Of a stretch of DNA of 64,000 nucleotides, positions 1-64,000 are shown one piece after another; position 1 is the first letter of the stretch; each line of letters begins with the position of its first letter. The notes beneath the pieces are model-generated. The model was not told the DNA's origin, did no database searches, and saw only the letters and a list, made by a program, of their open reading frames with translations. Made by a program: the position numbers and the translations under genes. The DNA lies in NCBI GenBank assembly GCA_000004985.1, contig GG738908.1; one strand, 5' to 3'. Origin of the DNA: Naegleria gruberi (Eukaryota).

Positions 1-3
1 GAC

Positions 4-1047
4 ATGGAAAAGGAACAACAAATATTACAAGAACAAATAGAACAAAAAAAGTTGAAACAACTAGAAATGGAAAGATTAGAAAGAAAAAGAATTACAAAAT
101 TAGAAATGGAAAGAATTGAAAAAGAACGTTTATTAAAAATAGAAAGAGAAAGAAAAGAATTTGAGAAAAAGCAACCATTCATAATCACATCTGAAACACT
201 TTCAAAATTATGTTCACTCAACCAACAAGTAGATAATAATAGAAGAAAAGTTGAAAAACAATTTGAATCAATTCAATCATTTTCTTCTTCTATTCAAATT
301 GAGAAAGAATTTCAAGATGAATATTTAAGAATTTGTGATAATTTAAATAATTGTTGTAATTTAATTGAAAAATTAACAAGTAATAATTATAATATTGAAA
401 ATAATGAACATTTGTCAACTATTAATAATTTAATGAATAATATTAGAACTATATTGGAATTTATTAATAATCAAAAATATTTATTTAAATTACAATCTTA
501 TTCAGAAGTATTAAATGAAAAATTAGAATTATTTAATGAATTTAATTCTCAATTTATTAAACAAGAATTATTTGACAATATTGAAATGAGTGAACAATCT
601 ATTAAGAATATAAAAAGTATTAATATTGTTCCAACTCATAATAAATTTGGAAATGAAACTAAAACAATATTACAACAAGTTACAAAACAATTATCAAATA
701 TTGTAAACTCTATCAATAATTGTAATGAAATTGATTTGACACAATTTTCAAATAATTTACAAAAAGCAATGGAATTATCAGAACAAGAAGAATTATATTT
801 AAATAATATATTGTCAAATTGTAAAATATTAATTTCAGACAATGATCAAATGAATATTTTACAATTATATAATTATTATCAAAAACAAGAATTAAATTGT
901 AAATTATTAATTCAAGAAACAATTCCATATATAATTGAAAAATATGAAATGTTACAAAATATTATAAATATTATGAATAATTATTCAAATTTATCTGAAC
1001 AATTTAAAACTATTCAAAGACAAAAAACAAGAATTNAAGAAATTTAA
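4..1047 (+). CDS. Coiled-coil and Asn/Ile-rich protein segment; probably the 5' part of the downstream PARP-domain gene, interrupted by an assembly gap, and it may start upstream of the window
   Basis: A 347-aa ORF with an N-terminal heptad-like charged repeat (LKQLEMERLERKRITKLEMERIEKERLL) followed by N/I-rich low complexity. It ends at a TAA 7 nt before the N-gap. The same coiled-coil style resumes after the gap. Confidence 0.45.
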   Translation: MEKEQQILQEQIEQKKLKQLEMERLERKRITKLEMERIEKERLLKIERERKEFEKKQPFIITSETLSKLCSLNQQVDNNRRKVEKQFESIQSFSSSIQIEKEFQDEYLRICDNLNNCCNLIEKLTSNNYNIENNEHLSTINNLMNNIRTILEFINNQKYLFKLQSYSEVLNEKLELFNEFNSQFIKQELFDNIEMSEQSIKNIKSINIVPTHNKFGNETKTILQQVTKQLSNIVNSINNCNEIDLTQFSNNLQKAMELSEQEELYLNNILSNCKILISDNDQMNILQLYNYYQKQELNCKLLIQETIPYIIEKYEMLQNIINIMNNYSNLSEQFKTIQRQKTRIXEI

Positions 1048-1053
1048 TTGTGA

Positions 1054-1103
1054 NNNNNNNNNNNNNNNNNNNNNNNNNNNNNNNNNNNNNNNNNNNNNNN
1101 NNN
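1054..1103. other. Assembly gap (50 N), plus a single N at 1036
   Basis: Run of n. Confidence 1.
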
Positions 1104-2036
1104 CATGAAAATTTGAAAATTGAAATTTTAAATCTAGAAAAGGAAAAGAAACAATTTTCAAATTCAAAGTCAAAGAAAAGTGAAGAAATTTCAAAGAAAT
1201 TACAAAATTTGAAACAAAAAGAAATTGAAATTGAGAAGATGGAAAAGGAAATTAAAGAATCAAAATCCAAACAATTAACAATTTCACTTCCAAGTTATTG
1301 GAAAAGAAACACATTCCAAACTTATTCGAAAAGATATTACATTATTGATGTTACACAATATTTAAAAGATACAATGCAAGAAATTATGAATGTATCGTGT
1401 AATTCTGCAACACTTGGATCTGGAAGAGATCAATTATTAAGAATTAATTATTCTAAATTAATTGTTTCAAGTGTTTCAAGAATTGAAAATTCAACACTTT
1501 TCACTTCATTCAAATCAAGAATGAATCATTTAATTTCATATCAAGATTCAATTAATTCACTTCAAGTTCAAACTGAAAATATTTCAAAAACATCAAAAAC
1601 ATTTGAATGGATGAAAACAATTGGATTAAATTCTAATATGAATGAAAAATATTTATGGCATGGAACAAAACCTGAATTTGTGAATACAATTGCAGAACAT
1701 GGATTTGATGAAAGAGTTGCAAATTTAAATGGATTATTTGGAGCAGGTATTTATTTTGCAGAATATTGTTCAAAGAGTGATCAATATTGTACACCTGATC
1801 ATTCAAATGAATATACTCTTTTATTATGTAGAGTTGTAATGGGAAGACAAATTCATTTCACAAAACAAGTGATGAATAATCAGAGAAGACCACCTGAAAT
1901 TTCAGGAAGTAATAATAGAGTTTATGATAGTGTTATTGGTCAATCAAATACTTCAACTAATTCATATAGAGAATTCATTGTCTATGATAAATGTCAATGT
2001 TATCCTGAATTTATTATTAAATACAAGAGACAATAA
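1104..2036 (+). CDS. PARP-family (mono-ADP-ribosyltransferase type) catalytic domain protein; C-terminal portion, with the 5' end inside the gap
   Basis: Translation gives YLWHGTKPEFVNTIAEHGFDE...GLFGAGIYFAEY...TLLLCRVVMGR...YDSVIG...REFIVYD..QCYPEFIIKYKRQ. This is the H-G-T / G-x-G-x-YFA / Y-P-E-(Y/F)-(L/I)-I signature of PARP catalytic domains (PARP10/14/15-like). It is preceded by a coiled-coil region. Stop is TAA at 2034-2036. Confidence 0.7.
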   Translation, partial: HENLKIEILNLEKEKKQFSNSKSKKSEEISKKLQNLKQKEIEIEKMEKEIKESKSKQLTISLPSYWKRNTFQTYSKRYYIIDVTQYLKDTMQEIMNVSCNSATLGSGRDQLLRINYSKLIVSSVSRIENSTLFTSFKSRMNHLISYQDSINSLQVQTENISKTSKTFEWMKTIGLNSNMNEKYLWHGTKPEFVNTIAEHGFDERVANLNGLFGAGIYFAEYCSKSDQYCTPDHSNEYTLLLCRVVMGRQIHFTKQVMNNQRRPPEISGSNNRVYDSVIGQSNTSTNSYREFIVYDKCQCYPEFIIKYKRQ

Positions 2037-10336: not shown

Positions 10337-10979
10337 ATTATATAATTATTATTATTTACAAAGTAATATGTACAGATTCATAAATTTACAAATTGTAGCT
10401 TCTTGTTGAAATCTTCTCAGAGTACAAGTCTTTGCTTATTATTATTTAGCTTGTTGAAGAAGAGGTCAAACCAGCTTGGTCCACGTTTGTTGTACAATTT
10501 TGATGAAGATAATCGGAACGCTGGAGAGATGATGAACAATGAAGAAGGCAAATTTTATTAAAAATAAAAAAAATAACGTGATGATGTTGTTCTATTAATA
10601 AAACATTCTATTTTTTGCTTTGGTATGAAGTTTGATGATGAAAATTTAAAAAGATTACATTAGTGTTTTTGTTTCCGGAATAATAATATTTATTTGAATC
10701 TTATTGTGAGTCTATTTAATGATTAATATTGAATTTTTGTAGACAAAAGATTAAGAATGGCATATTTGTGATATTCTTAGTTAAATATTGCTTTGTTAGG
10801 TATCTGGTCGAGTATTCTCTTTTCTTTGGAATATTGGGACCAGTTGGAGGTATCATATTTTCCTGATGGATTAACTTTTTTCAATCCAAAATGAAATTTT
10901 GATTTGTACAATTTACTTTTTTATAATTATTCTAGCTCAAATTAGTAATTTGGTTGATGACACATTAATGGTAAATAGA

Positions 10980-12468: not shown

Positions 12469-15400
12469 TTATTGAATGAAAATGAAAGCAAGAATCAATG
12501 AAAACAATACAATGAAATAGAATTTGGAGGAAGATGCTTGGTTGACTGATTGTTGAGCTAAAGTTGGTGAAATGGCAAAATCAGTCAAGTGAACAGTTCT
12601 ACATTTGACTCTGGTATTACTAATCTTGATAGATTCCAATCCAATTGATGAGAATTGTGATGATTGAGTATTGTAGAATTGACACAAACCCATCATTGTA
12701 GAATTCATTAAAGAAATGTCAACTTCAAACTCAATTGGGGAAGTGAGGTCTGAAATTTCGAGTTCAGTACCATTAGAAAGAATGTTAATTGAAATAATGG
12801 AAGAAACCAAATCAGTCTTGATGTGAGAGTAAATATTTTGTGAAATGATTGATAAGGAAATTGAAACAGAAGCACTGGAATCTAATTGATATTTGGAAGA
12901 AAGCAACTTTTTCAAAGAATCCTTTGGTAAGCTCAAGGAAGAAAGTCCAATTTGAGAAGGTGAGAAATTAAAGTTGTCAATTGTGCTCTTTACAACAGCT
13001 GTCTTGACAAGATTTGAAACTGAGACGCTCGATTGTCCATCAACCAATGACATGGCTGCTCCAACTTGACTAGCATCAATGACCTTCTTTAATTGAGAAG
13101 CAAAATTAGAATTTGATGTGGAAACAGTTGAAACCAATTGAGAAACTGTCTTGACAATGGAAGTTCTATCAGTAGATTGTAAGTTTTGCTTCAAAGATGT
13201 AGAAATACTCGACAATAAATTCAAAGTCTTTTGAGCTGTGTCTGATGTAATTTCTGATGGTTGATTGGTTAATCTTTCCAAAAGTCCAATCTTTGCGGTG
13301 TCAGAATCAGTTGAAGCAATAATTTGAGTCAAAATGTTACTTCTGATTGATGTCTTTTCAGTAGTTGTAAGCTTGGAATTGAGTAATGAATTGGCAATTT
13401 CCAAAGAACTCAATGAAGTGCTGCTAATCAAAGAGTTGACAAGTGAGCTAACTTCTTGAGCTGACATGGTAGTAGTTGGATCTTGAATGGTCAAAACTTT
13501 AGTTTTTTCAACTGTTGTAAAAGCAGCATCTCTGACTGCAAAGAAAATTGTCACTTGTCCAGAGCTGAAAGTAGGAAGAGTAAATGTTGGGGATGTTGAG
13601 CTAGCACTCAATTCAGCAACATAAACTTTGCTATTTTCTTGAGTATAATAACCAAATGAATAGAGCATGGTAAATGATTCTGGATCCGTGGCAACCAAAC
13701 TAGCTCTTAAACTTGTCTTGACAGCAAGTGCAGAACTAATTTCCAATCCACTAGTAGCATTGACAACCTTGAATGATGAAATAGTTGGTGATCTGTTAAT
13801 GGTAATCTTTAAATCTTTTGAAACGGATACAGATCCAGTAGCAGAAACACGAGTAGCATTCAATCTGAAAGTATAAGTTGCTCCTTCTGTTAAACTATTT
13901 GCCTTAATGGCTAAATCTTTCTTGTCAGTTCCAGCAACTGAAATAGTTTCCAAATTGACTGCAGTTCCAGAAACTTGAGTCCACTTGTAGCTCAATGAAG
14001 AATACGCACTCAATGATGAAATTGTAGATTTGAAAACAATGTCCATCGATCCAGGAGTATAAACAGTTTGTCCAGAGGTGAAAGTTGGTGAACTGATAAC
14101 AGCATCGAATGACAAATCACAACTTCCATAAACATAATTGGCTGGACAGGTACAAATATTTGGACCAGTACATTGTCCAAATCCACAACCACCCTTAGAG
14201 GAACAATCAAATACGTTACAATCACTTCCAGTATATCCTGACTTGCAAGTACAAACATTAGGTGAAGTACATGTACCATTTCCATTACAATTATTGAGAG
14301 TGGTACAAGTTGGAGTGTTACAACTAGCTCCTGTATATCCAGATTGACAAGTACAGACATTAGGACCAGTACATTGACCACGATTCATGCAATTCGAAAC
14401 CAAATTACAACTATATTGATTACAGGTACTTCCCTTATAACCAGCTTTACATAAACAAGTATTAATGGCAAGACAATCACCATTTCCATTACAATTATTC
14501 ACTCCAGCACATGATGGAGTTTCTCCAGGACGAACAGCTCTCAAGTAATTGCTAGTACATGCAGAGTTTTCACCCTGAGTGAGAAGATAGCCAACCGATG
14601 GATAATAATACTTGTATCCATTTGAATCTACTGCCTTAATATAATATTTTCTACAAGCAGTTCCAGAAGAAAGTCTAGTAGTATTATATTCGAAAGTTCC
14701 TGCATTCAAAGACGAATCAGTATACATACTCGATGTTGGAATACTCATTGGATATTCCACATCATTAATAAAAATGGAAACATTCAATGGAGCTACTCCC
14801 TTTCCCAAATCTGCCTTATGATAATAATTAGCAAGGAATGTAACTGTATCTGTGGCAAACGTAATATGTGTAGCAGCAACGATTGGATTTGAAATACCAT
14901 GTGAACCTGAGGCAAAATTCTGTGTCCAATAATCACTGAAACCTGTGGCTGCAACCTTTGGATAATGTCCAACTCCAAGAAGGGTATATGAGCTTCCAAG
15001 AATGTTGGCTCTGTGTCCATCAGAATTAATCCAAGCCATGGTTACAGAAAGAGGACTTGTCTGTCCAGCTGCAATATTTTCAGCCATTGCTGCTGGTTTA
15101 GTGTAAAAAGTAGCAACTCTGGTGAAGGTTAGAGTTCCATCACATGAATTATGTTGAAAACAAGGTACAGTTGCCATGTCTTTCGAATGGAATCGTCCAG
15201 ATTCTACCAAATTGAAATGTTCGAAAAGTGGAGGCAAACCAGTGGTTTCCAATGACTTTTCTGCTTGGAATAAATTCAAGAATCTGGTCTTGAATCCTGA
15301 AGGAGACATTCTAGCCCAATTTGTTAAAACATGGACCGTCTTTTCGACATATCTCGAATAAGTGTAAACTAAATCAGAAAGTGCATTCACACCAACTTGA

Positions 15401-15651
15401 TCACCAATTCCATAAAATTCCCAATTACCATTATCTGTGCTGCCATTGTTGGTTGAAGCACCACCATCATTAGCAAAAGTGGCCATGACAGCACGTTTGT
15501 TTTTGGCAAATTTCAAATTGCTGTCAAATGCCATCGAAGGAGGATTTTGTGAAATGACAGATAGAGGTTCATGTTCTGCCAACACCAGAAAGAGGGAGGA
15601 TAATACCAACACTACCAAGAGTGCATAATGCAACCTGTTACTCAACAACAT
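12469..15651 (-). CDS. Secreted CAP (SCP/TAPS) domain protein with tenascin-type EGF repeats, a Ser/Thr-rich mucin-like stalk and a C-terminal hydrophobic (GPI-like) tail
   Basis: A 1060-aa ORF with a signal peptide (MLLSNRLHYALLVVLVLSSLFLVLA). The CAP signature is GENIAAGQTSP...AWINSDGHRANILGSSYTLLGVGHY. About 6 EGF repeats follow (CNGNGDCLAINTCLCKAGYKGSTC...). A roughly 500-aa S/T-rich region is next, and the protein ends in FYFIVLFSLILAFIFIQ. Confidence 0.7.
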   Translation of the reverse strand: MLLSNRLHYALLVVLVLSSLFLVLAEHEPLSVISQNPPSMAFDSNLKFAKNKRAVMATFANDGGASTNNGSTDNGNWEFYGIGDQVGVNALSDLVYTYSRYVEKTVHVLTNWARMSPSGFKTRFLNLFQAEKSLETTGLPPLFEHFNLVESGRFHSKDMATVPCFQHNSCDGTLTFTRVATFYTKPAAMAENIAAGQTSPLSVTMAWINSDGHRANILGSSYTLLGVGHYPKVAATGFSDYWTQNFASGSHGISNPIVAATHITFATDTVTFLANYYHKADLGKGVAPLNVSIFINDVEYPMSIPTSSMYTDSSLNAGTFEYNTTRLSSGTACRKYYIKAVDSNGYKYYYPSVGYLLTQGENSACTSNYLRAVRPGETPSCAGVNNCNGNGDCLAINTCLCKAGYKGSTCNQYSCNLVSNCMNRGQCTGPNVCTCQSGYTGASCNTPTCTTLNNCNGNGTCTSPNVCTCKSGYTGSDCNVFDCSSKGGCGFGQCTGPNICTCPANYVYGSCDLSFDAVISSPTFTSGQTVYTPGSMDIVFKSTISSLSAYSSLSYKWTQVSGTAVNLETISVAGTDKKDLAIKANSLTEGATYTFRLNATRVSATGSVSVSKDLKITINRSPTISSFKVVNATSGLEISSALAVKTSLRASLVATDPESFTMLYSFGYYTQENSKVYVAELSASSTSPTFTLPTFSSGQVTIFFAVRDAAFTTVEKTKVLTIQDPTTTMSAQEVSSLVNSLISSTSLSSLEIANSLLNSKLTTTEKTSIRSNILTQIIASTDSDTAKIGLLERLTNQPSEITSDTAQKTLNLLSSISTSLKQNLQSTDRTSIVKTVSQLVSTVSTSNSNFASQLKKVIDASQVGAAMSLVDGQSSVSVSNLVKTAVVKSTIDNFNFSPSQIGLSSLSLPKDSLKKLLSSKYQLDSSASVSISLSIISQNIYSHIKTDLVSSIISINILSNGTELEISDLTSPIEFEVDISLMNSTMMGLCQFYNTQSSQFSSIGLESIKISNTRVKCRTVHLTDFAISPTLAQQSVNQASSSKFYFIVLFSLILAFIFIQ

Positions 15652-25318: not shown

Positions 25319-28300
25319 ATGTCATCACCACAACATGCAACCCTGCTTCTCGCCTTTTTNNNNNNNNNNNNNNNNNNNNNNNNNNNNNNNNNNNNNNNNN
25401 NNNNNNNNNNNNNNNNNNNNNNNNNNNNNNNNNNNNNNNNNNNNNNNNNNNNNNNNNNNNNNNNNNNNNNNNNNNNNNNNNNNNNNNNNNNNNNNNNNNN
25501 NNNNNNNNNNNNNNNNNNNNNNNNNNNNNNNNNNNNNNNNNNNNNNNNNNNNNNNNNNNNNNNNNNNNNNNNNNNNNNNNNNNNNNNNNNNNNNNNNNNN
25601 NNNNNNNNNNNNNNNNNNNNNNNNNNNNNNNNNNNNNNNNNNNNNNNNNNNNNNNNNNNNNNNNNNNNNNNNNNNNNNNNNNNNNNNNNNNNNNNNNNNN
25701 NNNNNNNNNNNNNNNNNNNNNNNNNNNNNNNNNNNNNNNNNNNNNNNNNNNNNNNNNNNNNNNNNNNNNNNNNNNNNNNNNNNNNNNNNNNNNNNNNNNN
25801 NNNNNNNNNNNNNNNNNNNNNNNNNNNNNNNNNNNNNNNNNNNNNNNNNNNNNNNNNNNNNNNNNNNNNNNNNNNNNNNNNNNNNNNNNNNNNNNNNNNN
25901 NNNNNNNNNNNNNNNNNNNNNNNNNNNNNNNNNNNNNNNNNNNNNNNNNNNNNNNNNNNNNNNNNNNNNNNNNNNNNNNNNNNNNNNNNNNNNNNNNNNN
26001 NNNNNNNNNNNNNNNNNNNNNNNNNNNNNNNNNNNNNNNNNNNNNNNNNNNNNNNNNNNNNNNNNNNNNNNNNNNNNNNNNNNNNNNNNNNNNNNNNNNN
26101 TATTGATGGTATCAATTCTTTCACAATTACTGGCTCTACATTTGCAAACAATTCCAAATTACACATGACAACTGTTTTCAGCTCTACCTTGAGAGGTTTG
26201 ACTTTTGAGGGAAATGAAAATGTTCTTTCTGCGAAAGGAATTGGTTCTTTTACATTGGAGCATTCAAATTTTACTCGCAATGGTAATCCAATTTATATTT
26301 CAGGAAATCAATTGACAAATCAATTTAGAAAAATTAGTTTTTGTTTATTTGAGGACAATTGGTCAACCAGCAATGGTCTTATAACATTGGAACAGTTTCC
26401 CACACATGTGGAATTTAACAATTTCAGAAATAATTGGGCAGTGAATGGAGGAATAATTTATGCAACTAGTTCCATAATTACTTTGGATAAAAATCAGTTT
26501 GTGGATACTTATGCAAGATTCATTGAAGGTTGTTTAGTTGATAATTGTGGAAATGGAGGAATTGCCTATATTTCTAATACTATTTTGTACATGTCCAATC
26601 TCATTATTCAAAATACTCAAGCAATTAGAGGAGGAATTGTTTATTCTGAGGGAAATTCTCGAATTCAAACCCAAAATTGTGATATTTCAGATAATATTGC
26701 TTCTTTGGCTGGTAATTTATTTTACTTTGGAGATGTTATTGATTTTAATGCCCAAAATTATTCGAAATCTGACCTGAGTTCGAGGAAAACAACTCGAGCA
26801 CTTTGGAGAACGGAATCTAGTCAACCTTACGATAATCAACGAATTGCCATCCAACCCGGGCAAACAATACAATTGGATTTTGAGTATTTTGACATGTTTG
26901 ACAACAGATTCAATAGAACAAATTCTGCTCCAATTATTAAGGCAAGTGATTCATCCAACATTCTTGTATCCCTCGTTTCAATTGATCCACTTTCCAATAC
27001 TGACTTTAAATTCTTCTTGCAAGTGTCAGAAACTTCAAAAAGCTCAAATATTTCAGTATATCTCCCATTCCATGACTTTACATTTGAGATTGATATTGAT
27101 ATTATTGGATGCCCTTTTGATTATGGTTTATCACCACTTTTAAATTCACACTACAACGTGTGTGTCTATAGAGGTTATATTATAATTGTATTCTCCTCTA
27201 TTGGCATTGCAATCATTCTACTGGTTGCAATTTATTTATTGATCTATGTTGTTAAGAGATTACTCAAATTGAGAAAGAAGGAAATGACTGAAAAGGAAAT
27301 TGCACAAAAGATTATTGATAAGAATTTTGTTTTTTCTATCAATACTGATAATGAGCACACTCCATTATTATCAAAACTGGAAGTTGCCAAGATTAGTAAT
27401 ATCTTAATTCCAATTGAGGATATTGAAATCATCAAAAGAATTGGAGAAGGAGCTAATGGTACTGTATACTTAGCTAAATGGCAAGGAAATCGTGTAGCTC
27501 TAAAAAGTTTAAAATTCGAAAGGGATAGCACTGACTTTGAAAATGAAGCATCTCTCCTTAATAATTTGAGACATCCTTCTATTGTGAGATTTTATGGAAT
27601 TGTAGTGTCTTCTTCAGTTAAATACATGGTTACAGAGTTTGTGGAAAATGGAAGTTTGGATGCAGCCATTCATAATTCCAAAATTGGAAAGAAGAAACTT
27701 GATTTACAAACAAAATTACAAATTTTGAGAGGAATTGCAAATGGAATGAACTATCTTCATAATTTGAAAACTCCATGTCTTCACAGAGATTTGAAATGTC
27801 AAAATATTCTTCTCAATTCCAACATGGAACCAAAGGTTACAGATTTTGGATTGTCAAAATTGACTTTAAATTCAATGACATTGACTTGCAATATTGGAAC
27901 AGCTCTTTACATGGTAAGTTTTCAAATTTAAGAGAGTTAAACCGAGTCAATCATTGTAAAGTCTCCTGAATTATTTGGAAGTGGTTACAAAATTTCATAC
28001 AAATTGGACGTTTACAGTTTCTCCATCATCATGTACGAATTATTCTTTGAGGAAACTCCATTCTTTAGCTCATCAGCCAAGATGAGAAAATTTATCATTT
28101 CATCCACTGAACAATCACCAGAAGATGATCATGATACAATGAATTTTGGTTTTGCAATTCCAGTAAAAGTTTCGAAAGGAGAACGGCCAATGCTTCCCTG
28201 GACTAATGATGAGGAATGTGAAATGTGGATTAAGGAATTTATAGAACCCTATGAAGGAGGAGGAGGAGGAAATAATAGTAGTAGCAAAAGATCTTCATCC

Positions 28301-36787: not shown

Positions 36788-39700
36788 ATGGAGAAAGTAC
36801 CACTCCAGCAAATATCAAAAAGAAAAGGTACGACCTTCAGATTCTTCCATGAAGCTAGTTGCAACGAGATAAATCAGCACAGAGCAGTGCTGTCATCATC
36901 ATTGACAACAAGGAGTGGTTTGATCACACTGATGATTGTTGTTATAATAATGATGCTGGTTGTTGTGGAACATTCGGAAGCATCTCCCACAACAATAGCA
37001 GTTGCTGGTAGTGTGGGTAATACAGACGAGGCTTGGAATTTTCCACTGTATGGTACGGGTATATTTGTGGTGCCAAACAGTGATCCTTCATTGTTGCCAA
37101 CTTTTTATGTTTCTGATGGAAATTTGTGTGTTGTGAGACAGATCATTGGAAATCAAAGTCGAGTGGTGGCAGGAACAGGTGAATGTTTACCAAACGGTGC
37201 TGATTCAGTTCCTGGAACAGAATCTACCTTGTATGGACCTACGAATATGTATTATGATGCTACTACAGATTTTCTCTACATTTTGGATTCGTCATCTATT
37301 AGATTATTGGACATGAAGAGTGGAATAATTTCTAAAATGCTCATTACATTCAGTGGAACTAATTTAAACTCATTTTCTCAACCAAGTGGTATTACCATGT
37401 TCAATAAGGATATTTATGTGGCAGATACAGGAAAAGCTGTTGTGTGGAAAGTGCAAATTACCTATAGAAATGTTGGTACAGCAACAATTAGTGTTGGAAG
37501 TTTGAATAATATGAATAACAATAATTATTGTGATAATGTTTATGCCACCACGTGTAAACTTATCAAACCTACAAGTATCTCTTTCTTCCCAGATGGAACC
37601 AAGGCAATTGCAGATGGAAGAAGAGTTATTATTGTTACTCCAACCAATTCGGCATATGAAGCTCCTGTATCCATGTCTATGAACAATCCAGTACATGTTG
37701 TCGCCTATGATGCATCCAACTTGTTGATTTCAGATCTAGGACTAGCACGTTTTATACAATTTAACAAGGATCAAGCACAACCAAATACTAATGTGGTATT
37801 GTCATCTTCTTGGGCAAGAAATACTTATTTTGGACTTGTGAAACAAGCAGACAATTCTAAAAATGTATACTTCCTCACAGGTCAAGATTACACAACAAAG
37901 AGAAGTCAAATTGTTTCGTTTAACTTTATTGATAGCGATTTACCAAGTACTTCTACAACACCATTATATGGCATGTATGACTCTGGATTCCAGTTTGATA
38001 ATCCACATAATGCATTGAGTGTTTACATGCCTAGTCCACAACAAATGAGACTAACTTCAAGTAATCAATTGTATTTCCCAATTTTTAATTCTGCTGTTGT
38101 AAAGGTAGATTTGAATTCTGGATTAGTGACAAGAATTGCTGGAAGTATTACACAATTTGGATATAATCAAGACAGTATCCCTGCAACCATAGCTCTGATG
38201 ACTAGACCAAATACTGTTTTACAATTGGATTCCGGAGATTTAATCATTTCAGATACAGGTAATAACAGAATTAGAAAAATTGATTCAAATGGAATTATAA
38301 CTACAATAGTTGGTACAGGAACGCAAGGAAATAGTGGAGATTATGGGCCTGCAAGTCAATGCCAATTAAATGGTCCACAAGGACTGGCAACACCTCCAAC
38401 AAGCATGAAAGGTCAATTTTTGTTTGATTTTGCTGACACTAATAATAACAGAATTAGAAGAATACAAAATGACTTGACAGTTATACCCCTATTAAGCAAT
38501 AATCCTAATAATGATGGAATTAACGGACCAAATGGAATAATGTACACGCCAAATGGTGATCTTTATATCGCCAGTCAAGGAAATCACAAAATAATGAAAT
38601 ACAGTAATTCACAATTGAGTACTGTTGCTGGAAATGGTTATGCAGGTTATTCAGGAGATGGAGGACCAGCCAGAAATGCCAAGTTGAACTATCCTGCAGA
38701 TGTTACAGTTTCCTCCACAGGTGAAGTTTATATTGCAGGTATGTTTTGAAGAAATTTAATGTAATTTTTAAACGATTCATCTACTAGATTGGGGAAATAG
38801 AGCTGTAAGAAAAGTTTTCAGAAATGGAACAATTATTACTCTTATTGTTAGTGGCGGACTTTCGGACTTGAATGGTGTTACATTGACACCGAATGGAGAT
38901 TTGTTGTATTCAACACAATTATGGGTCAAGCTGTATATGGAGGGAGATTCAGGAAGTTGTATTGATAAGAATACATGCAATAATCATGGCAGTTGTGTGA
39001 ATGGAAAGTGTGTTTGTGATAGTGGATGGAGAGGAAATTTGAATTGTGGAACATTTTCATGTGACATTACACCACCACCTCATTCTTCACAATGTATTGG
39101 TCCAAATCAATTTTCTTGTCAAGATGGGTGGACAGGATTAAATTGCCAGGAACCAGTTTGCTTTGGAACTCCAGCAAACACCACAACAGTATGCAGTTCA
39201 CACGGTAAATGTATTTCCAATAATACATGTAATTGTGTGAGTGGATGGAGAGGCAATTCAGATTGCAGTGCATTTTCATGTGATGTAAAATCTGAACATG
39301 GAGAGTATTGTATTGGACCTAATACCTACAAATGTCAAGATGGCTGGATTGGTGATTTATGTGACATTCCACTTTGTAATGGAATTCCAGCAAATAATCC
39401 AGCAGTTTGCAATTCACACGGACAGTGCATTTCCAATAATACATGTAATTGCTTTAGTGGATGGAGAGGAAATAGTATTTGCACTCAATTTACATGTGAT
39501 GGTGTCAATAATTGTCAACCTCATGGTCAATGCATTTCTAATAATACTTGTAAATGTAGTACTGGTTATGGTGGAAATGGATGTAACGATAGAATGTGCT
39601 TTGGTAAATGGGGTCAAGCAGGTTGCAGCAATAATGGATATTGTTCAAATACTGACAAGTGCAGTTGTTTCCCTCTCTATTTTGGACAACAATGTCAGTG

Positions 39701-41048
39701 GCTTGATTGTAATCCCTCTTCAAATGATCAATCCATTAATTCTACTAAGGGCTGTTCTTCAAATGGAAACTGTACTGTTATTGACAATGATCAAACCAGA
39801 CAAAACTCAACAATTTGTAAATGTAACGAAGGATTTGATGGGCTGTATTGTCAAGAAAAGAAGTCATCAGGAAATGGTGGAACTGTTGCAGCTGTTGTCA
39901 TTGTTGTGTTGCTTTTCATTTGTTGTTTGATTGCTTTCATAGCAGTTGGTGGTTTTGTTTATTACAAGAAACGAGCAAGTTCCAAATCAGAGGAATTTGA
40001 GAATTTGATTCCAAAATCTGTTAACGACGATTGGACTTTGAGAACTGTTATTCCTCCAGAGGAGGCAACTGTGAAAAGTACAGCCTCTTCTGTTAAATCT
40101 GAAAATAGCTTTATACGGTCAATTAGAAAGCAACTGGGTAGTTCAAGTACAACATCTTCTGTATCAACCATTAACACAAGAGATCATTTCCATATTAGAG
40201 ATAAAGAATATGTGAAATCAAAGAAATTGGGATCAGGTGCAAGTGGAACAGTTTTCATGTTTGATGAGTTGACCAATAAGGAACAAGTTGCTGTGAAAAT
40301 TATTGAAGTTTTAAATCCAAATGGAAGCGAATTTAAGGAAGTTGTGAACATGTTTGAATTGAGTGAAGAAGCAAATCCTCACATTGTTCCAATTCTAGGA
40401 TGTACAATGGTTGAAAATGGAGGATATATTTGTATCTTGATGCCATTATACAAATGTGATTTGAGAAATTGGATGTATTCCAATAAGGAGACGGTTCCAA
40501 TCGAAATAATTGTCGAAATTGTGAAACAAATTGCATCAGCACTTCAATATCTCCATTCTAAGAACATGGTACACAGAGATTTGAAACAAAGTAATATATT
40601 TGTTTCAAAATCACCTGATCTTTCAAAGAATAATGTGAATGTTTCATCTTTCCAACTTTGTGTTGGAGATTGGGGATCTTCAAGATATCAAACAAGATCT
40701 TCTTTAACTGCTTATGAAGGAACAATTCAATACAGTTCACCAGAGTCAATTGTAAAAGCAGAATTTTCACCAAAAAGTGATGTTTGGAGTCTTGGATGTA
40801 TTTTATATCAATTATTATCAGCAGATTACAATACTTGTTTGATGAGAGTGAAACAAACCTCAATGAATGACCAATCAGATGTTCAAATCATAGGAAATGT
40901 TGAAAAATTCTTTTCAAAACGTTCAGATCATTCACACAAACTTTACAAAATCATTTGTGATTTAATGTTGGAAATGTTGAGATTTAATCCAGAGGAGAGA
41001 ATTTCCACAGATGAAATTGTCCAAAAACTCTCAATGAACAATGTTTAA
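36788..41048 (+). CDS. Receptor-like protein kinase: signal peptide, NHL-repeat beta-propeller, tenascin-type EGF repeats, TM helix and cytoplasmic kinase domain; 2 exons
   Basis: CDS join(36788..38738,38788..41048). The intron is GTATGT...CTACTAG (49 nt) and splits ...GEVYIAG|D. NHL blades show as (Y/F)..GDLYI(A/S)D..N.RI.K. There are about 9 EGF repeats (C.SGWRGN..C..FSCD). The TM helix is VAAVVIVVLLFICCLIAFIAVGGFVYY. The kinase carries LGSGASGTVF, VAVKII, HRDLKQSNIF, the variant G-D-W-G in place of DFG, SPE and DVWSLGCILYQLL. Confidence 0.8.
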
Positions 41049-41110: not shown

Positions 41111-42187
41111 ATGCAACAAGTTGTTTTATTATTGGATGATGATTTGTCTCAATCGTTTGGTGATATCGGAAGTGATTGGTTGTTTATAAAATTATCAACA
41201 CAAATGCGAACTAAATTATTGCAAAATTCACACGAATTTCACACCACAAACTTTAAACTCGTGCACACGATTGGTGAGTGCAAACGAAAAGGCTCTTCCG
41301 AATATTTGTTGAATGATCCTATGGGTTTAAAAATTAGCAAATTGATGAATTGGTTGTTAATATGTGATTCGGGAAATAAGAGAGTACAAATATATGACAG
41401 ATTTAATTTTGAATACTTGTATTCGATTCGGATGAAAACTCAACCTCAATATGTGGAAATTGAAGAGTGGCATGATCAGTGTGGATATTATGCAGATGAG
41501 AATTCATTATTACTATACATTACTTGTTCGAATCAGGTTTTAATCAAGATGAAAGTTACTGTAGTGATGGAAGAAAATGAAAAGAAACTTCATGTTGAGG
41601 AATTGTGGAATACTCGAGAATTATTGGAAAGAAATGAACTAAGTGCAGAGTATGGGCTATTCTTTGAGAGATTCAACCAAGAATATTTGAATTCTGTCTT
41701 GTATGTTTGTGATTCAACCAAGAGAAGAATTGTCATGTTGAATGCCCTTGATGGAAGCATTCTCAATCAATTATTTCTGAAAAGAAAGGAGAAATTCAGT
41801 TCAGCAGTCTCTATTCTAATCGATTCTAAAAAGAAATGGATTTTAGTGAGCGAAATGGCTGGTCAACGTGTGAAAATTTTAGATTACAAAACTAGACAAT
41901 TATTACACTCACTTGGAAAGTATGGAAAAGAGTTGGATGAATTTTCATATCCTAGAGGAATATTCTTGGAAGAGAAGATGAATAGATTATATGTGTGTGA
42001 TGCTTCAAATAATAGAATTTCGCTGATTGACTTGGACAAGTTGGAATTTGTGGAATATTTTGGAGGAAAGAATTCGAATATGGAACAAGTTCAATTGAAA
42101 ACACCAACTTCAGTGGTGATTGATGATTCGACTGGAACTCTTCTAGTTTCTGATAACAAATTAGATCAAGTTTTCATCTTTAGATGA
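41111..42187 (+). CDS. Cytosolic NHL-repeat protein
   Basis: A 358-aa ORF with no signal peptide. Its NHL-like blades are LNDPMGLKISKLMNWLLICDSGNKRVQIYD, FSYPRGIFLEEKMNRLYVCDASNNRISLIDL and LKTPTSVVIDDSTGTLLVSDNKLDQVFIF. Confidence 0.65.
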   Translation: MQQVVLLLDDDLSQSFGDIGSDWLFIKLSTQMRTKLLQNSHEFHTTNFKLVHTIGECKRKGSSEYLLNDPMGLKISKLMNWLLICDSGNKRVQIYDRFNFEYLYSIRMKTQPQYVEIEEWHDQCGYYADENSLLLYITCSNQVLIKMKVTVVMEENEKKLHVEELWNTRELLERNELSAEYGLFFERFNQEYLNSVLYVCDSTKRRIVMLNALDGSILNQLFLKRKEKFSSAVSILIDSKKKWILVSEMAGQRVKILDYKTRQLLHSLGKYGKELDEFSYPRGIFLEEKMNRLYVCDASNNRISLIDLDKLEFVEYFGGKNSNMEQVQLKTPTSVVIDDSTGTLLVSDNKLDQVFIFR

Positions 42188-43257: not shown

Positions 43258-43554
43258 TGTCTTTTTCTATTATAAATCACTCGATGGCGATAAGTGAAGA
43301 GATGATGAGGGCAAGATGGTGTTCCTCTTTTTTGAAGTTCTTCTTTGTTGTTTAATGTTATTATTAAACACAAAATTACACACATTGATGGATCCTTAAT
43401 TGGAGTTTGTTGAACCAATTTAATACCAATGGTCTACTGTAAATTTTGAAAAAATAAAAAAATAAAAGTAAATTACAAATTAGATTATTAAGAATGAAAT
43501 ATTTGATAATACATATTGTTGATAATAAGTATTGAAAATTATAAAACTTTTCGG

Positions 43555-43628
43555 TGGAGTATAGAGTGATTTGAACACCTGACCTCCCGCTTGCAGAGCG
43601 GGCGCTCTCCCATCTGAGCTAACACCCC
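43555..43628 (-). tRNA. tRNA-Ala (anticodon UGC)-like gene
   Basis: The reverse complement reads GGGGTGTTAGCTCAGATGGGAGAGCGCCCGCTCTGCAAGCGGGAGGTCAGGTGTTCAAATCACTCTATACTCCA. It has a canonical Ala D-arm (GCTCAG..GGGAGAGC). The anticodon stem is CCCGC/GCGGG with loop TCTGCAA (TGC). The acceptor stem GGGGTGT/ATACTCC carries the G3:U70 alanine identity pair and an A73 discriminator. The T-arm has one extra nucleotide or bulge (AGGTG-TTCAAAT-CACTCT), so it may be slightly degenerate. Confidence 0.55.
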
Positions 43629-55929: not shown

Positions 55930-57492
55930 ATGACTGCACTCTTCATCTCTTTCCTTCTTCTCCTTTGCACATCACTGAAACTATCACATGCTACTACCTA
56001 TCCAGTTTATAACATTTCCAATTTTTTGGGAGGTGGTAGTGTTTTAGGAGATGGTGGATTGGCTGTGAATGCCAAAGTAGAATATACTGAAGGAGTTGCA
56101 GTCAATTCTAAAGGAGAAGTATTAGTAGTACAGAATTTTTATGGTCGTGTTAGAAAGGTTGATAAAAATGGATATGTTACAACGATAGCAGGATTTGGAA
56201 CTTCTGGTGATAGTAGTGGAAATGGAGGTTTGGCAACTAATGCAATGCTTGGCTACCCTGCAGGAATTACAGTTAACGATAAAGATGAAATTTATCTTGT
56301 GGAATATGGAACTCACATGGTTCGAAAGATTTTGGTGAATGGAACAATTCAAGAATTTGCTGGAATTTTAAATGGTGGAGGATTTGGAGGAGATAATGGA
56401 TTGGCAACGAATGCTATTTTTAACCATCCGTATGGAGTTTCAGTTAATCCATTAACAGGTGATGTTTACATTTCAGATTTTTCGAATAATCGAATTCGTA
56501 AGGTAGATTCGAGTGGAATCATTTCAACATATGTTGGAACTGGAAATACAGAGTATGGAGCTGATGACATTTTGGCTGTTAATGCTAATATTAACAGTCC
56601 TTATTATATTGCAACAGGTCCAAATGGTGATTTATACATCCCATTAGTAGGATCATCTAGAATTTGTAAAGTTTCGTATAGTACTGGAAAAATTACAACC
56701 ATAGCAGGTACTGGAGCTTATGGGTATAGTGGAGATGGTGGATTGGCAATTAATGCTGTGATTAGATATCCAAAAAGTATAGCCATAGGTAAACATGGTG
56801 AAATTTTTTTTACTGATTCGGATAATCAAGTCATTCGTCGAATTACTCCAGATGGAATCATTACAACCATAGCGGGCACTGGTAATTTTGGTTATTCTGG
56901 TGATGGCGGTTTAGCAACAAGTGCTGATATCAGTAAGCCAACTGGAATAGCTGTAGATTCGAATGGAACCATTTACTTTTGCGATAATAACAATAATAGA
57001 GTTAGAAAGTTAGTTCCTTACTGTTTGGATGGAAAGCTAGTGAATGGAACTTGTGAATTTTCTTGTTTTGGAATCAAGAACAATCTTGCAACTGTTTGTA
57101 ATGGTCATGGAAATTGTTTGGCCACAAATAGTTGTTTATGTGATTCTGGATGGAAAGGAAATGTACAATGTTCTCAATTCAGTTGTGATGGTTTGAATAA
57201 TTGCAATGGGCATGGCAGTTGTGTTTTGAATAATACTTGTCAATGTCAAGATGGTTGGAAAGGAAATTTAGAGTGTTCTCAATATAGTTGTGAAAGAGTT
57301 AATAATTGTAATGGAAGAGGAGCTTGTGTAGGTGTCAATACTTGTTTGTGTGTTAGTGGATATTTTGGAAAAGAATGTCAATACAAAACCTGTTTTGCAA
57401 ATAGTAACAATGAAATGCTAAATTATGGAAATAGACCATTTACCATGTCTGAAAGATTTTGTCAAAAGATAAATAAACAGTTATTGGTTTAA
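55930..57492 (+). CDS. Secreted NHL-repeat plus tenascin-type EGF-repeat protein; ectodomain paralog of the NHL-EGF receptor kinase, with no kinase domain
   Basis: A 520-aa single ORF with a signal peptide (MTALFISFLLLLCTSLKLSHA). It has about 6 NHL blades (GDVYISDFSNNRIRKVD..., GTIYFCDNNNNRVRKL) and then 4 EGF repeats (C.C.SGWKGN.QCSQFSCD). It ends without a recognisable TM. Confidence 0.75.
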   Translation: MTALFISFLLLLCTSLKLSHATTYPVYNISNFLGGGSVLGDGGLAVNAKVEYTEGVAVNSKGEVLVVQNFYGRVRKVDKNGYVTTIAGFGTSGDSSGNGGLATNAMLGYPAGITVNDKDEIYLVEYGTHMVRKILVNGTIQEFAGILNGGGFGGDNGLATNAIFNHPYGVSVNPLTGDVYISDFSNNRIRKVDSSGIISTYVGTGNTEYGADDILAVNANINSPYYIATGPNGDLYIPLVGSSRICKVSYSTGKITTIAGTGAYGYSGDGGLAINAVIRYPKSIAIGKHGEIFFTDSDNQVIRRITPDGIITTIAGTGNFGYSGDGGLATSADISKPTGIAVDSNGTIYFCDNNNNRVRKLVPYCLDGKLVNGTCEFSCFGIKNNLATVCNGHGNCLATNSCLCDSGWKGNVQCSQFSCDGLNNCNGHGSCVLNNTCQCQDGWKGNLECSQYSCERVNNCNGRGACVGVNTCLCVSGYFGKECQYKTCFANSNNEMLNYGNRPFTMSERFCQKINKQLLV

Positions 57493-57595
57493 GATTTCAT
57501 GGTAACTTCGATTAGGTAAAGTGTTTTGGTCAGCATTATTAATTGCCATTTTGTTGTTGGTACCTGTCATTATCTCTGGTTTGGGATCCGCATGT

Positions 57596-57658
57596 ATTTA
57601 AGAGATTACTTAGTGAAGATTTATATCATTGATTATATTTCTTATCATCTATTAATGA
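57596..57658. repeat. 63-bp direct repeat, copy 1
   Basis: ATTTAAGAGATTACTTAGTGAAGATTTATATCATTGATTATATTTCTTATCATCTATTAATGA. It is 61/63 identical to the copy at 58081-58143. Confidence 0.6.
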
Positions 57659-58080
57659 ACCTGTTGTGACTTCTAAGGCCAAATTCATTGGTAATGAGCT
57701 AGTAGAAACCATTATACTTTACAAATCATGTAACAGTGATACTACACAAAAAAACAAATTCCTAACTGTTGGTGGATTTATTATTCAGAAAGATGATGTT
57801 GACAGATGCAGAATCATTGATTTGAAAATGTTTAACATGGGTGGATTTTTACAAAGCGATTTCATCTTTATTGAAAGTGTGACATGAAAATTAAAAAATG
57901 ACTTAAAACTAGTTTTTATCCTTAATTGGTTGAATAACATTTTCATATAGTAAATTGAATGTTTACTTTGGTAAAAACAAACCCTTGCAAACTGGTAATA
58001 AAACCAAAACCAAGAACCATTACTTTGGTACATAAATTCAAATGGGTTTGGTTAGGATTCAGAGTTGATTTATTTGGGTT

Positions 58081-58143
58081 ATTTAAGAGATTACTTAGTG
58101 AAGATTCATATCATTGATTATATTTCTTATAATCTATTAATGA
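58081..58143. repeat. 63-bp direct repeat, copy 2
   Basis: ATTTAAGAGATTACTTAGTGAAGATTCATATCATTGATTATATTTCTTATAATCTATTAATGA. It lies about 485 bp downstream of copy 1 in the same orientation. Confidence 0.6.
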
Positions 58144-58981: not shown

Positions 58982-61900
58982 NNNNNNNNNNNNNNNNNNN
59001 NNNNNNNNNNNNNNNNNNNNNNNNNNNNNNNNNNNNNNNNNNNNNNNNNNNNNNNNNNNNNNNNNNNNNNNNNNNNNNNNNNNNNNNNNNNNNNNNNNNN
59101 NNNNNNNNNNNNNNNNNNNNNNNNNNNNNNNNNNNNNNNNNNNNNNNNNNNNNNNNNNNNNNNNNNNNNNNNNNNNNNNNNNNNNNNNNNNNNNNNNNNN
59201 NNNNNNNNNNNNNNNNNNNNNNNNNNNNNNNNNNNNNNNNNNNNNNNNNNNNNNNNNNNNNNNNNNNNNNNNNNNNNNNNNNNNNNNNNNNNNNNNNNNN
59301 NNNNNNNNNNNNNNNNNNNNNNNNNNNNNNNNNNNNNNNNNNNNNNNNNNNNNNNNNNNNNNNNNNNNNNNNNNNNNNNNNNNNNNNNNNNNNNNNNNNN
59401 NNNNNNNNNNNNNNNNNNNNNNNNNNNNNNNNNNNNNNNNNNNNNNNNNNNNNNNNNNNNNNNNNNNNNNNNNNNNNNNNNNNNNNNNNNNNNNNNNNNN
59501 NNNNNNNNNNNNNNNNNNNNNNNNNNNNNNNNNNNNNNNNNNNNNNNNNNNNNNNNNNNNNNNNNNNNNNNNNNNNNNNNNNNNNNNNNNNNNNNNNNNN
59601 NNNNNNNNNNNNNNNNNNNNNNNNNNNNNNNNNNNNNNNNNNNNNNNNNNNNNNNNNNNNNNNNNNNNNNNNNNNNNNNNNNNNNNNNNNNNNNNNNNNN
59701 NNNNNNNNNNNNNNNNNNNNNNNNNNNNNNNNNNNNNNNNNNNNNNNNNNNNNNNNNNNNNNNNNNNNNNNNNNNNNNNNNNNNNNNNNNNNNNNNNNNN
59801 NNNNNNNNNNNNNNNNNNNNNNNNNNNNNNNNNNNNNNNNNNNNNNNNNNNNNNNNNNNNNNNNNNNNNNNNNNNNNNNNNNNNNNNNNNNNNNNNNNNN
59901 NNNNNNNNNNNNNNNNNNNNNNNNNNNNNNNNNNNNNNNNNNNNNNNNNNNNNNNNNNNNNNNNNNNNNNNNNNNNNNNNNNNNNNNNNNNNNNNNNNNN
60001 NNNNNNNNNNNNNNNNNNNNNNNNNNNNNNNNNNNNNNNNNNNNNNNNNNNNNNNNNNNNNNNNNNNNNNNNNNNNNNNNNNNNNNNNNNNNNNNNNNNN
60101 NNNNNNNNNNNNNNNNNNNNNNNNNNNNNNNNNNNNNNNNNNNNNNNNNNNNNNNNNNNNNNNNNNNNNNNNNNNNNNNNNNNNNNNNNNNNNNNNNNNN
60201 NNNNNNNNNNNNNNNNNNNNNNNNNNNNNNNNNNNNNNNNNNNNNNNNNNNNNNNNNNNNNNNNNNNNNNNNNNNNNNNNNNNNNNNNNNNNNNNNNNNN
60301 NNNNNNNNNNNNNNNNNNNNNNNNNNNNNNNNNNNNNNNNNNNNNNNNNNNNNNNNNNNNNNNNNNNNNNNNNNNNNNNNNNNNNNNNNNNNNNNNNNNN
60401 NNNNNNNNNNNNNNNNNNNNNNNNNNNNNNNNNNNNNNNNNNNNNNNNNNNNNNNNNNNNNNNNNNNNNNNNNNNNNNNNNNNNNNNNNNNNNNNNNNNN
60501 NNNNNNNNNNNNNNNNNNNNNNNNNNNNNNNNNNNNNNNNNNNNNNNNNNNNNNNNNNNNNNNNNNNNNNNNNNNNNNNNNNNNNNNNNNNNNNNNNNNN
60601 NNNNNNNNNNNNNNNNNNNNNNNNNNNNNNNNNNNNNNNNNNNNNNNNNNNNNNNNNNNNNNNNNNNNNNNNNNNNNNNNNNNNNNNNNNNNNNNNNNNN
60701 NNNNNNNNNNNNNNNNNNNNNNNNNNNNNNNNNNNNNNNNNNNNNNNNNNNNNNNNNNNNNNNNNNNNNNNNNNNNNNNNNNNNNNNNNNNNNNNNNNNN
60801 NNNNNNNNNNNNNNNNNNNNNNNNNNNNNNNNNNNNNNNNNNNNNNNNNNNNNNNNNNNNNNNNNNNNNNNNNNNNNNNNNNNNNNNNNNNNNNNNNNNN
60901 NNNNNNNNNNNNNNNNNNNNNNNNNNNNNNNNNNNNNNNNNNNNNNNNNNNNNNNNNNNNNNNNNNNNNNNNNNNNNNNNNNNNNNNNNNNNNNNNNNNN
61001 NNNNNNNNNNNNNNNNNNNNNNNNNNNNNNNNNNNNNNNNNNNNNNNNNNNNNNNNNNNNNNNNNNNNNNNNNNNNNNNNNNNNNNNNNNNNNNNNNNNN
61101 NNNNNNNNNNNNNNNNNNNNNNNNNNNNNNNNNNNNNNNNNNNNNNNNNNNNNNNNNNNNNNNNNNNNNNNNNNNNNNNNNNNNNNNNNNNNNNNNNNNN
61201 NNNNNNNNNNNNNNNNNNNNNNNNNNNNNNNNNNNNNNNNNNNNNNNNNNNNNNNNNNNNNNNNNNNNNNNNNNNNNNNNNNNNNNNNNNNNNNNNNNNN
61301 NNNNNNNNNNNNNNNNNNNNNNNNNNNNNNNNNNNNNNNNNNNNNNNNNNNNNNNNNNNNNNNNNNNNNNNNNNNNNNNNNNNNNNNNNNNNNNNNNNNN
61401 NNNNNNNNNNNNNNNNNNNNNNNNNNNNNNNNNNNNNNNNNNNNNNNNNNNNNNNNNNNNNNNNNNNNNNNNNNNNNNNNNNNNNNNNNNNNNNNNNNNN
61501 NNNNNNNNNNNNNNNNNNNNNNNNNNNNNNNNNNNNNNNNNNNNNNNNNNNNNNNNNNNNNNNNNNNNNNNNNNNNNNNNNNNNNNNNNNNNNNNNNNNN
61601 NNNNNNNNNNNNNNNNNNNNNNNNNNNNNNNNNNNNNNNNNNNNNNNNNNNNNNNNNNNNNNNNNNNNNNNNNNNNNNNNNNNNNNNNNNNNNNNNNNNN
61701 NNNNNNNNNNNNNNNNNNNNNNNNNNNNNNNNNNNNNNNNNNNNNNNNNNNNNNNNNNNNNNNNNNNNNNNNNNNNNNNNNNNNNNNNNNNNNNNNNNNN
61801 NNNNNNNNNNNNNNNNNNNNNNNNNNNNNNNNNNNNNNNNNNNNNNNNNNNNNNNNNNNNNNNNNNNNNNNNNNNNNNNNNNNNNNNNNNNNNNNNNNNN

Positions 61901-62910
61901 NNNNNNNNNNNNNNNNNNNNNNNNNNNNNNNNNNNNNNNNNNNNNNNNNNNNNNNNNNNNNNNNNNNNNNNNNNNNNNNNNNNNNNNNNNNNNNNNNNNN
62001 NNNNNNNNNNNNNNNNNNNNNNNNNNNNNNNNNNNNNNNNNNNNNNNNNNNNNNNNNNNNNNNNNNNNNNNNNNNNNNNNNNNNNNNNNNNNNNNNNNNN
62101 NNNNNNNNNNNNNNNNNNNNNNNNNNNNNNNNNNNNNNNNNNNNNNNNNNNNNNNNNNNNNNNNNNNNNNNNNNNNNNNNNNNNNNNNNNNNNNNNNNNN
62201 NNNNNNNNNNNNNNNNNNNNNNNNNNNNNNNNNNNNNNNNNNNNNNNNNNNNNNNNNNNNNNNNNNNNNNNNNNNNNNNNNNNNNNNNNNNNNNNNNNNN
62301 NNNNNNNNNNNNNNNNNNNNNNNNNNNNNNNNNNNNNNNNNNNNNNNNNNNNNNNNNNNNNNNNNNNNNNNNNNNNNNNNNNNNNNNNNNNNNNNNNNNN
62401 NNNNNNNNNNNNNNNNNNNNNNNNNNNNNNNNNNNNNNNNNNNNNNNNNNNNNNNNNNNNNNNNNNNNNNNNNNNNNNNNNNNNNNNNNNNNNNNNNNNN
62501 NNNNNNNNNNNNNNNNNNNNNNNNNNNNNNNNNNNNNNNNNNNNNNNNNNNNNNNNNNNNNNNNNNNNNNNNNNNNNNNNNNNNNNNNNNNNNNNNNNNN
62601 NNNNNNNNNNNNNNNNNNNNNNNNNNNNNNNNNNNNNNNNNNNNNNNNNNNNNNNNNNNNNNNNNNNNNNNNNNNNNNNNNNNNNNNNNNNNNNNNNNNN
62701 NNNNNNNNNNNNNNNNNNNNNNNNNNNNNNNNNNNNNNNNNNNNNNNNNNNNNNNNNNNNNNNNNNNNNNNNNNNNNNNNNNNNNNNNNNNNNNNNNNNN
62801 NNNNNNNNNNNNNNNNNNNNNNNNNNNNNNNNNNNNNNNNNNNNNNNNNNNNNNNNNNNNNNNNNNNNNNNNNNNNNNNNNNNNNNNNNNNNNNNNNNNN
62901 NNNNNNNNNN
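58982..62910. other. Assembly gap (3929 N) in the subtelomeric region
   Basis: Run of n. Confidence 1.
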
Positions 62911-63581
62911 TATTTGATAGACTTGGTCTGACTTGTCTTTCCTTTCAGTCAACTTTGTAAAATCAACATTTACATTCCCATGGTACCATTTCTAATTCTT
63001 ATGATATGAAATTGAATTCTACATCATTATATATCATCTAAATCATGATGGTAAAGTTTCAATAGGTGGTCCTTTATCAAGATTTCCACCTTTTCATCAT
63101 AGTTGACCATGTGTGGTTGAGGGAAGAAATCTGTAAATATGAAAGTTAAAATAAATTTGATATTCGATGTATACTCACCAAATGGAACATTTTCATGTCT
63201 GGATTCAATATGTTTTGATGAGAAACTCAAAAGTTATTGTTGACCTCTTTTACCTCACATCTTCCCTTTTCACTTGATACTTTTATACCTACAGACATGA
63301 ACTTTTGAAATTTTATATGAAAGTGATTATAAATGTTGTTAATGATGATATAGACTATATAATCTCATTAAAGGATTTTGAAATTATCATTCTTCCTATG
63401 GTTTCATTTTATAATTTTTAATATGACATTATTTACAAAGTTAATATTTTATAAATTGAAAAACTAAGTATAATACATTGTTCTACTCATCATTTACAAT
63501 CGAATGATATAATATTCAATAATTTGGGCTAGGGTTTGAACTTTGAAACATTGGGTCTGGTATTTCAATTTTAGGTTCAAA

Positions 63582-64000
63582 GGTTTGGGTTTGGGTTTGG
63601 GTTTGGGTTTGGGTTTGGGTTTGGGTTTGGGTTTGGGTTTGGGTTTGGGTTTGGGTTTGGGTTTGGGTTTGGGTTTGGGTTTGGGTTTGGGTTTGGGTTT
63701 GGGTTTGGGTTTGGGTTTGGGTTTGGGTTTGGGTTTGGGTTTGGGTTTGGGTTTGGGTTGGGTTTGGGTTTGGGTTTGGGTTTGGGTTTGGGTTTGGGTT
63801 TGGGTTTGGGTTTGGGTTTGGGTTTGGGTTTTGGGTTTGGGTTTGGGTTTGGGTTTGGGTTTGGGTTTGGGTTTGGGTTTGGGTTTGGGTTTGGGTTTGG
63901 GTTTGGGTTTGGGTTTGGGTTTGGGTTTGGGTTTGGGTTTGGGTTTGGGTTTGGGTTTGGGTTTGGGTTTGGGTTTGGGTTTGGGTTTGGGTTTGGGTTT
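63582..64000 (+). repeat. Telomere-like hexamer array (TTTGGG)n with the G-rich strand 5'->3' toward the window and scaffold end
   Basis: About 70 near-perfect GGGTTT units run to the last base. Variant units are GGGTT at about 63758 and GGGTTTT at about 63830. Degenerate related motifs (GGGCTAGGGTTTGAA, GGTTCAAAGG) lie immediately upstream at 63520-63580. Confidence 0.85.

Follow-up and report, generated by a model that had tools for sequence, protein, structure and literature searches.

The window analyzed, a 64,000-nucleotide stretch of the Naegleria gruberi contig GG738908.1, had a G+C content of ~33% and contained many ORFs of 500–1,090 codons that were open under the standard genetic code, a pattern that points to a compact, intron-poor eukaryote. 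The domains identified in these ORFs included choline-transporter-like, cytochrome P450, EGF/teneurin-NHL, CAP, protein kinase, RGS, PAS, F-box/LRR, RCC1 and TmcB domains. The P450 ORF (18257–19807, minus strand) matched an NCBI entry, "predicted protein [Naegleria gruberi]", at 100% identity along its whole length, and its next matches, in N. lovaniensis, Willaertia magna and N. fowleri, were at 39–44% identity. This match placed the window in N. gruberi and overturned a dictyostelid (social amoeba) origin, at which the TmcB, EGF and NHL domains had hinted. A tRNA-Ala(TGC) gene (43553–43628, minus strand) was the single Rfam match in the window.

Many of the ORFs in the ~55 kb adjoining the terminal array described below (2672–57492) were EGF/teneurin-NHL, CAP-domain or EGF-receptor-kinase-like. 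Examples of these EGF/NHL/CAP/kinase-like ORFs were found at 12469–15651 (minus strand) and at 36788–38749, 38868–41048, 41111–42187 and 55930–57492 (all plus strand). A TEN_NHL/EGF gene was likewise found near the contig end at the N. lovaniensis locus that carries the P450 homologue. This EGF/NHL/CAP-rich set may represent a subtelomeric surface-protein family. The opposite end of the window (1–2000) was very A-rich, with 21% G+C and numerous short imperfect tandem repeats. Besides the large assembly gap considered below, there were three more gaps in the window, with N runs at 1036, 1054–1103 and 25360–26100.

Part of the gene-bearing region was also recovered from the environment. A metagenome contig of 7,635 bp (L001; ENA ERZ929261, run ERR1078381, PRJEB11402) matched the window at ~10.9–17.7 kb, and its proteins (a CAP/EGF protein, an RCC1-like protein and P450 fragments) were 97–100% identical to the window ORFs with their order kept. 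This identity and conserved order indicated that N. gruberi, or a near-identical strain, was present in that sample. Among the environmental TTTGGG contigs listed in the scan described below, no Naegleria-related sequence was found besides this contig.

The last stretch of sequence before the large gap contained two small features. The first was a direct repeat of 64 nt, whose two copies (57595–57658 and 58080–58143) were 97% identical and 485 nt apart, each with a TTTGGG ~15 nt or less ahead of it; this could be a small subtelomeric duplication. The second, located a little way inward of the gap at ~58043–58080 on the plus strand, was a short degenerate telomere-like patch (GGGTTTGGTTAGGATTCAGAGTTGATTTATTTGGGTT) that held the sole TGGGTTTGG 9-mer outside the terminal array. 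The patch may be an interstitial telomere relic, or it may have arisen by chance.

A gap of 3,929 N (58982–62910) parts this gene-bearing portion of the scaffold from a terminal contig of 1.09 kb (62911–64000). The contig begins with 609 bp (62911–63519) of AT-rich, apparently non-coding, unique subtelomeric sequence, so that the AT-rich subtelomere and 3.9-kb gap reported in the first-pass annotation were both borne out. The whole non-repeat part of the contig (62911–63581) amounted to 671 bp with 27% G+C, and its longest stop-free stretch was 68 codons. There was no significant similarity between these 671 bp and the remaining window, and no repeats were found within them.

Between this sequence and the array was a junction of 62 nt (63520–63581, plus strand) composed of degenerate G-strand-like units, namely TTTGGG, CTAGGG, TTGGG, TCTGG, TTTTAGG and TTCAAAGG. 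The strings quoted for it in the first-pass annotation were present, with GGGCTAGGGTTTGAA at 63526–63540 and GGTTCAAAGG at 63574–63583. Within the 62 nt there were three GGG and no CCC, and at least three GGG were reached by just 0.34% of the other 62-nt windows of the sequence; a G-strand bias of this size exceeds chance and is what telomere units in decay should show. A single unit of the junction (CTAGGGTTT) is similar to the TTTAGGG and TTAGGG telomeres. The earlier description of these units as TTTAGGG-type over-reads them, as there was a single TAGGG in the junction. The window as a whole contained four copies of TTAGGG and two of TTTAGGG, none of them within the array. One coordinate of the span originally given, 63520–64000, is corrected here: the array does extend to position 64000, but the pure repeat begins at 63582 and not at 63520.

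The pure (GGGTTT)n array (63582–64000, plus strand) was delimited by Tandem Repeats Finder run on the whole window, by a unit census and by direct reading of the sequence. It was 419 bp long and filled the last bases of the window. Tandem Repeats Finder assigned it a period of 6, 69.8 copies, 99% matches, 0% indels and a score of 822, the highest in the window by a factor of approximately eight (the runner-up scored ~100). These values agreed with the earlier description of a uniform array of about 70 GGGTTT units that runs off the window end. The census showed 67 of 70 units to be exactly GGGTTT. The other three were single-base length variants: GGTTT at 63582 (at the junction), GGGTT at 63755 and GGGTTTT at 63826. 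TTGGGG units within the array numbered zero.

The G-rich strand of the array is the plus strand and, as had been stated, it runs 5' to 3' outward, off the 3' end of the window; unique sequence was visible on its 5' side, the flank that lies inside the window. In the other 63.5 kb of the window there were no two-unit copies of TTTGGG on either strand, and TTTGGGTTTGGG, CCCAAACCCAAA, GGGTTTGGG and CCCAAACCC were likewise absent from that part of this single window. Outside the array the repeat was seen just as isolated, scattered 9-mers of 1.5 units.

Together, the polarity of the array, its homogeneity, the lack of internal copies in 63.5 kb, the G-biased junction and a published assignment of the same repeat support the reading of a right-end telomere. 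We conclude that the array is very probably a genuine chromosome-end telomere of N. gruberi, built of the hexamer TTTGGG. The published assignment is that of Fulneckova et al. 2013 (Genome Biol Evol 5:468), who looked for telomere-type minisatellites in 143 genome assemblies, used the position and orientation of a candidate repeat at scaffold ends as their criterion, and for N. gruberi gave TTTGGG as the candidate (PMC3622300). Their call was made in silico, and the authors stated that experiments were required (PMC3622300). Our literature search recovered no Bal31 or TRAP proof for this repeat.

The window shows a single flank of the array. Consequently, the same sequence could in principle be an interstitial (TTTGGG)n microsatellite or satellite, generated by slippage and with no role in capping an end, inside which the window happens to stop. 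Many genomes have internal telomere-like blocks as well, as the same survey points out (PMC3622300). A scan of public metagenome contigs for runs of eight perfect TTTGGG units returned at least 120 loci; the arrays were sorted into internal ones and those at a contig end, and the latter were divided by whether the G-strand pointed outward or inward. Internal arrays made up 71 of the 122 arrays listed; they were 48–139 bp in length and occurred chiefly in contigs of high G+C. For contigs with at least 42% G+C, the matches listed comprised 54 internal arrays (mostly short), 10 outward and 8 inward, and this preponderance of internal arrays means that (TTTGGG)n by itself is no proof of a telomere. 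In contigs below 42% G+C, by comparison, 30 of the terminal arrays among the matches listed were outward versus 2 inward (binomial p = 2e-7), with 17 internal.

The array in the window differs from these interstitial blocks in several respects. At 419 bp or more it is three times as long as any internal block among those listed, its G-strand is directed outward, and there is no second copy in 63.5 kb. The degenerate, G-biased junction is on its inner side only, and an AT-rich, gene-free flank and an assembly break adjoin it. Furthermore, an independent study judged the repeat to be terminal in this genome (PMC3622300). We therefore consider an interstitial origin of the N. gruberi array highly improbable.

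The metagenome scan also identified a second genome in which the repeat was consistently terminal. In the assembly JAESGV01, all 21 contigs among the matches listed (21/21) carried the array at a contig end with the G-strand outward (p = 1e-6 versus random orientation, two-sided binomial). The organism, which is uncultured, uses the standard code, has ~35% G+C, and has PPR ORFs, a few kb from the telomeres, that end in a DYW-type deaminase motif. The DYW domain is rare outside plants, yet it has been described in Naegleria and Acrasis. The SET1 histone methyltransferase of JAESGV01 matched that of Acrasis kona with 49% identity over 76% of the query (E = 8e-168), the second-best match being at E = 3e-21. 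The code, base composition, DYW-type PPR ORFs and SET1 affinity together identified JAESGV01 as another heterolobosean, and it is not closely related to Naegleria. Its terminal arrays strengthen the telomere reading for N. gruberi.

Several further features were observed on the JAESGV01 contigs. Two of them, L041 (JAESGV010000876.1) and L107 (JAESGV010001824.1), carried DYW-type PPR ORFs of 935–1,349 aa a few kb from the telomeres. On L041, a Ty3/gypsy-like pol ORF abuts the telomeric array, as judged from protease, RT, RNaseH and integrase motifs that were read by eye. A third contig, L069 (JAESGV010000192.1), had an internal TTTGGG stretch of ~3.5 units at 10907–10927, which was 3.6 kb inside the terminal array and on the same strand; this stretch is a possible interstitial telomere relic.

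Elsewhere, the TTTGGG hexamer is most familiar from Paramecium, which has it as one of its two telomere hexamers (PMC13085455; PMC5855555), and the terminal contig contains no demonstrably Naegleria gene. These two points would fit foreign or artifactual sequence, such as Paramecium-type ciliate DNA or a library artifact, that had been wrongly scaffolded. Paramecium telomeres do have the identical hexamer, with the G-strand outward and made by telomerase (PMC13085455; PMC5855555). In those telomeres, however, TTTGGG is a variant amid TTGGGG that has been put down to a single template position at which misincorporation or stuttering occurs (PMC13085455; PMC5855555), whereas the window array was uniform TTTGGG without TTGGGG and thus lacks the intermixing that defines the Paramecium type. 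The hosts differ also, the window deriving from a standard-code heterolobosean and Paramecium being a ciliate. In addition, TTTGGG was judged to predominate among the terminal repeats in the assembly of N. gruberi (PMC3622300), and a related heterolobosean had the same pure repeat at 21/21 contig ends among those listed. On these grounds contamination or artifact is scarcely credible as the source of the terminal contig. A ciliate origin of the window itself was ruled out by the ORFs of at least 1,000 codons open in the standard code, which exclude a ciliate with reassigned stop codons, together with the lack of TTGGGG and the presence of Naegleria proteins.

That the array belongs to this chromosome arm and to no other depends on how the assembly was first scaffolded across the 3.9-kb gap. 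The terminal contig is linked solely by mate pairs across the 3,929 N, and it has no gene or other feature that ties it to the remaining window. A genuine telomere could thus have been placed on the wrong scaffold, the 1.09-kb contig belonging to another chromosome end and having been joined here, for example, via shared subtelomeric repeats. Nothing positive favors such a misjoin, though. The 671 bp of unique sequence belonged to no repeat family in the window and so gave no hint of a subtelomeric element, present in multiple copies, by which the scaffolding could have been misled, and the degenerate telomere-like patch near the inner edge of the gap fits a subtelomeric neighborhood. We regard a misjoin as unlikely, and it would in any case be compatible with the array being a genuine N. 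gruberi telomere.

With regard to known telomere types, the array has several properties of the telomerase-type TnAmGo class: a homogeneous unit consisting of a T-run and a G-run with a period of 6, an outward G-strand, and, within this one window, no long internal blocks. It has the general TnAmGo design, the polarity and, very probably, the terminal location in common with the Arabidopsis-type TTTAGGG and human-type TTAGGG repeats, but TTTGGG is without the A of either. The first-pass annotation was thus correct that the hexamer is unlike these common types, although this is not a new observation. Other A-less T/G motifs are known from insects, in which TeloSearchLR identified TTTGG in Sitophilus and TTTGGGTTTG in Hyposoter dolosus (PMC12134996). 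Like the array studied here, the insect motifs were found from sequence data, in their case by stranded terminal occupancy (PMC12134996). Their units, however, are 5 and 10 nt versus a hexamer, and the lineages are unrelated, from which we infer that the insect motifs arose independently of TTTGGG.

On the model of all other TnGm/TnAGm telomeres, we propose that telomerase would extend the G-rich 3' strand in the 5' to 3' direction by copying a short RNA template that contains a permutation of CCCAAA, of ~1.5 repeats. The C-strand would then be filled in and capping proteins would bind the array, which in this way would cap the end of the chromosome and offset replicative loss. The single-base length variants GGGTT and GGGTTTT may reflect either telomerase slippage or read errors, and the 62-nt junction would consist of old repeats that have mutated since telomerase no longer renews them. 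In the window there was no match to an Rfam telomerase RNA family, the tRNA-Ala being the only Rfam hit, nor was there a convincing template-bearing telomerase RNA locus among the scattered 1.5-unit 9-mers.

Alternatively, the array could be truly terminal but kept by recombination, through ALT-like copying, instead of by telomerase. The lack of a template-like RNA gene in the window would be in keeping with this, as would our literature search, which found no publication on a Naegleria TERT or telomerase RNA; a missing TERT paper, however, says nothing on the absence of the gene. Against recombination, the array was almost perfectly homogeneous and its sole variants were single-T length changes. 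Such near-homogeneity with single-T changes is what templated synthesis that slips now and then typically produces, while in arrays maintained by recombination variant units are usually present and become spread. Maintenance by recombination is accordingly very unlikely in our estimation.

The array is an instance of the already published candidate telomere of N. gruberi, and it is mechanistically ordinary. The organism, the hexamer and the type of evidence are the same as those of the candidate of Fulneckova et al., and nothing of substance is different (PMC3622300); our analysis re-confirmed that in-silico call from the raw sequence. What is presented here beyond the main text of their paper, which is without per-scaffold detail, is a description of how a single end is built, together with another heterolobosean lineage that has the identical repeat (PMC3622300). 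The JAESGV01 arrays are an only modestly new element of the analysis. Our literature search found nothing besides that survey linking Heterolobosea, telomeres and TTTGGG, nothing relevant on Acrasis telomeres, and no discussion of telomeres in later Naegleria genome papers.

The occurrence of the same terminal repeat in two heteroloboseans that are not close relatives suggests that the motif is shared within the group. The contigs of other members of the group that we inspected ended at assembly breaks or away from chromosome ends: the N. lovaniensis and W. magna contig ends were unique sequence without the repeat, the A. kona contig started within coding sequence, and the N. fowleri locus was internal. 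A lack of the repeat at such places does not contradict the telomere reading. We give roughly even weight to the proposition that TTTGGG has long been conserved as a telomere repeat common to much of Heterolobosea and is no Naegleria oddity.

For N. gruberi, the array marks this end of the scaffold as a probable true chromosome end, which helps in judging the completeness of the assembly and in defining the subtelomeric gene neighborhood. If the repeat does prove to be shared across Heterolobosea, an A-less TTTGGG telomere throughout the group would add a data point to the evolution of telomere motifs in Discoba, and it would supply a template sequence with which heterolobosean telomerase RNA might be found.
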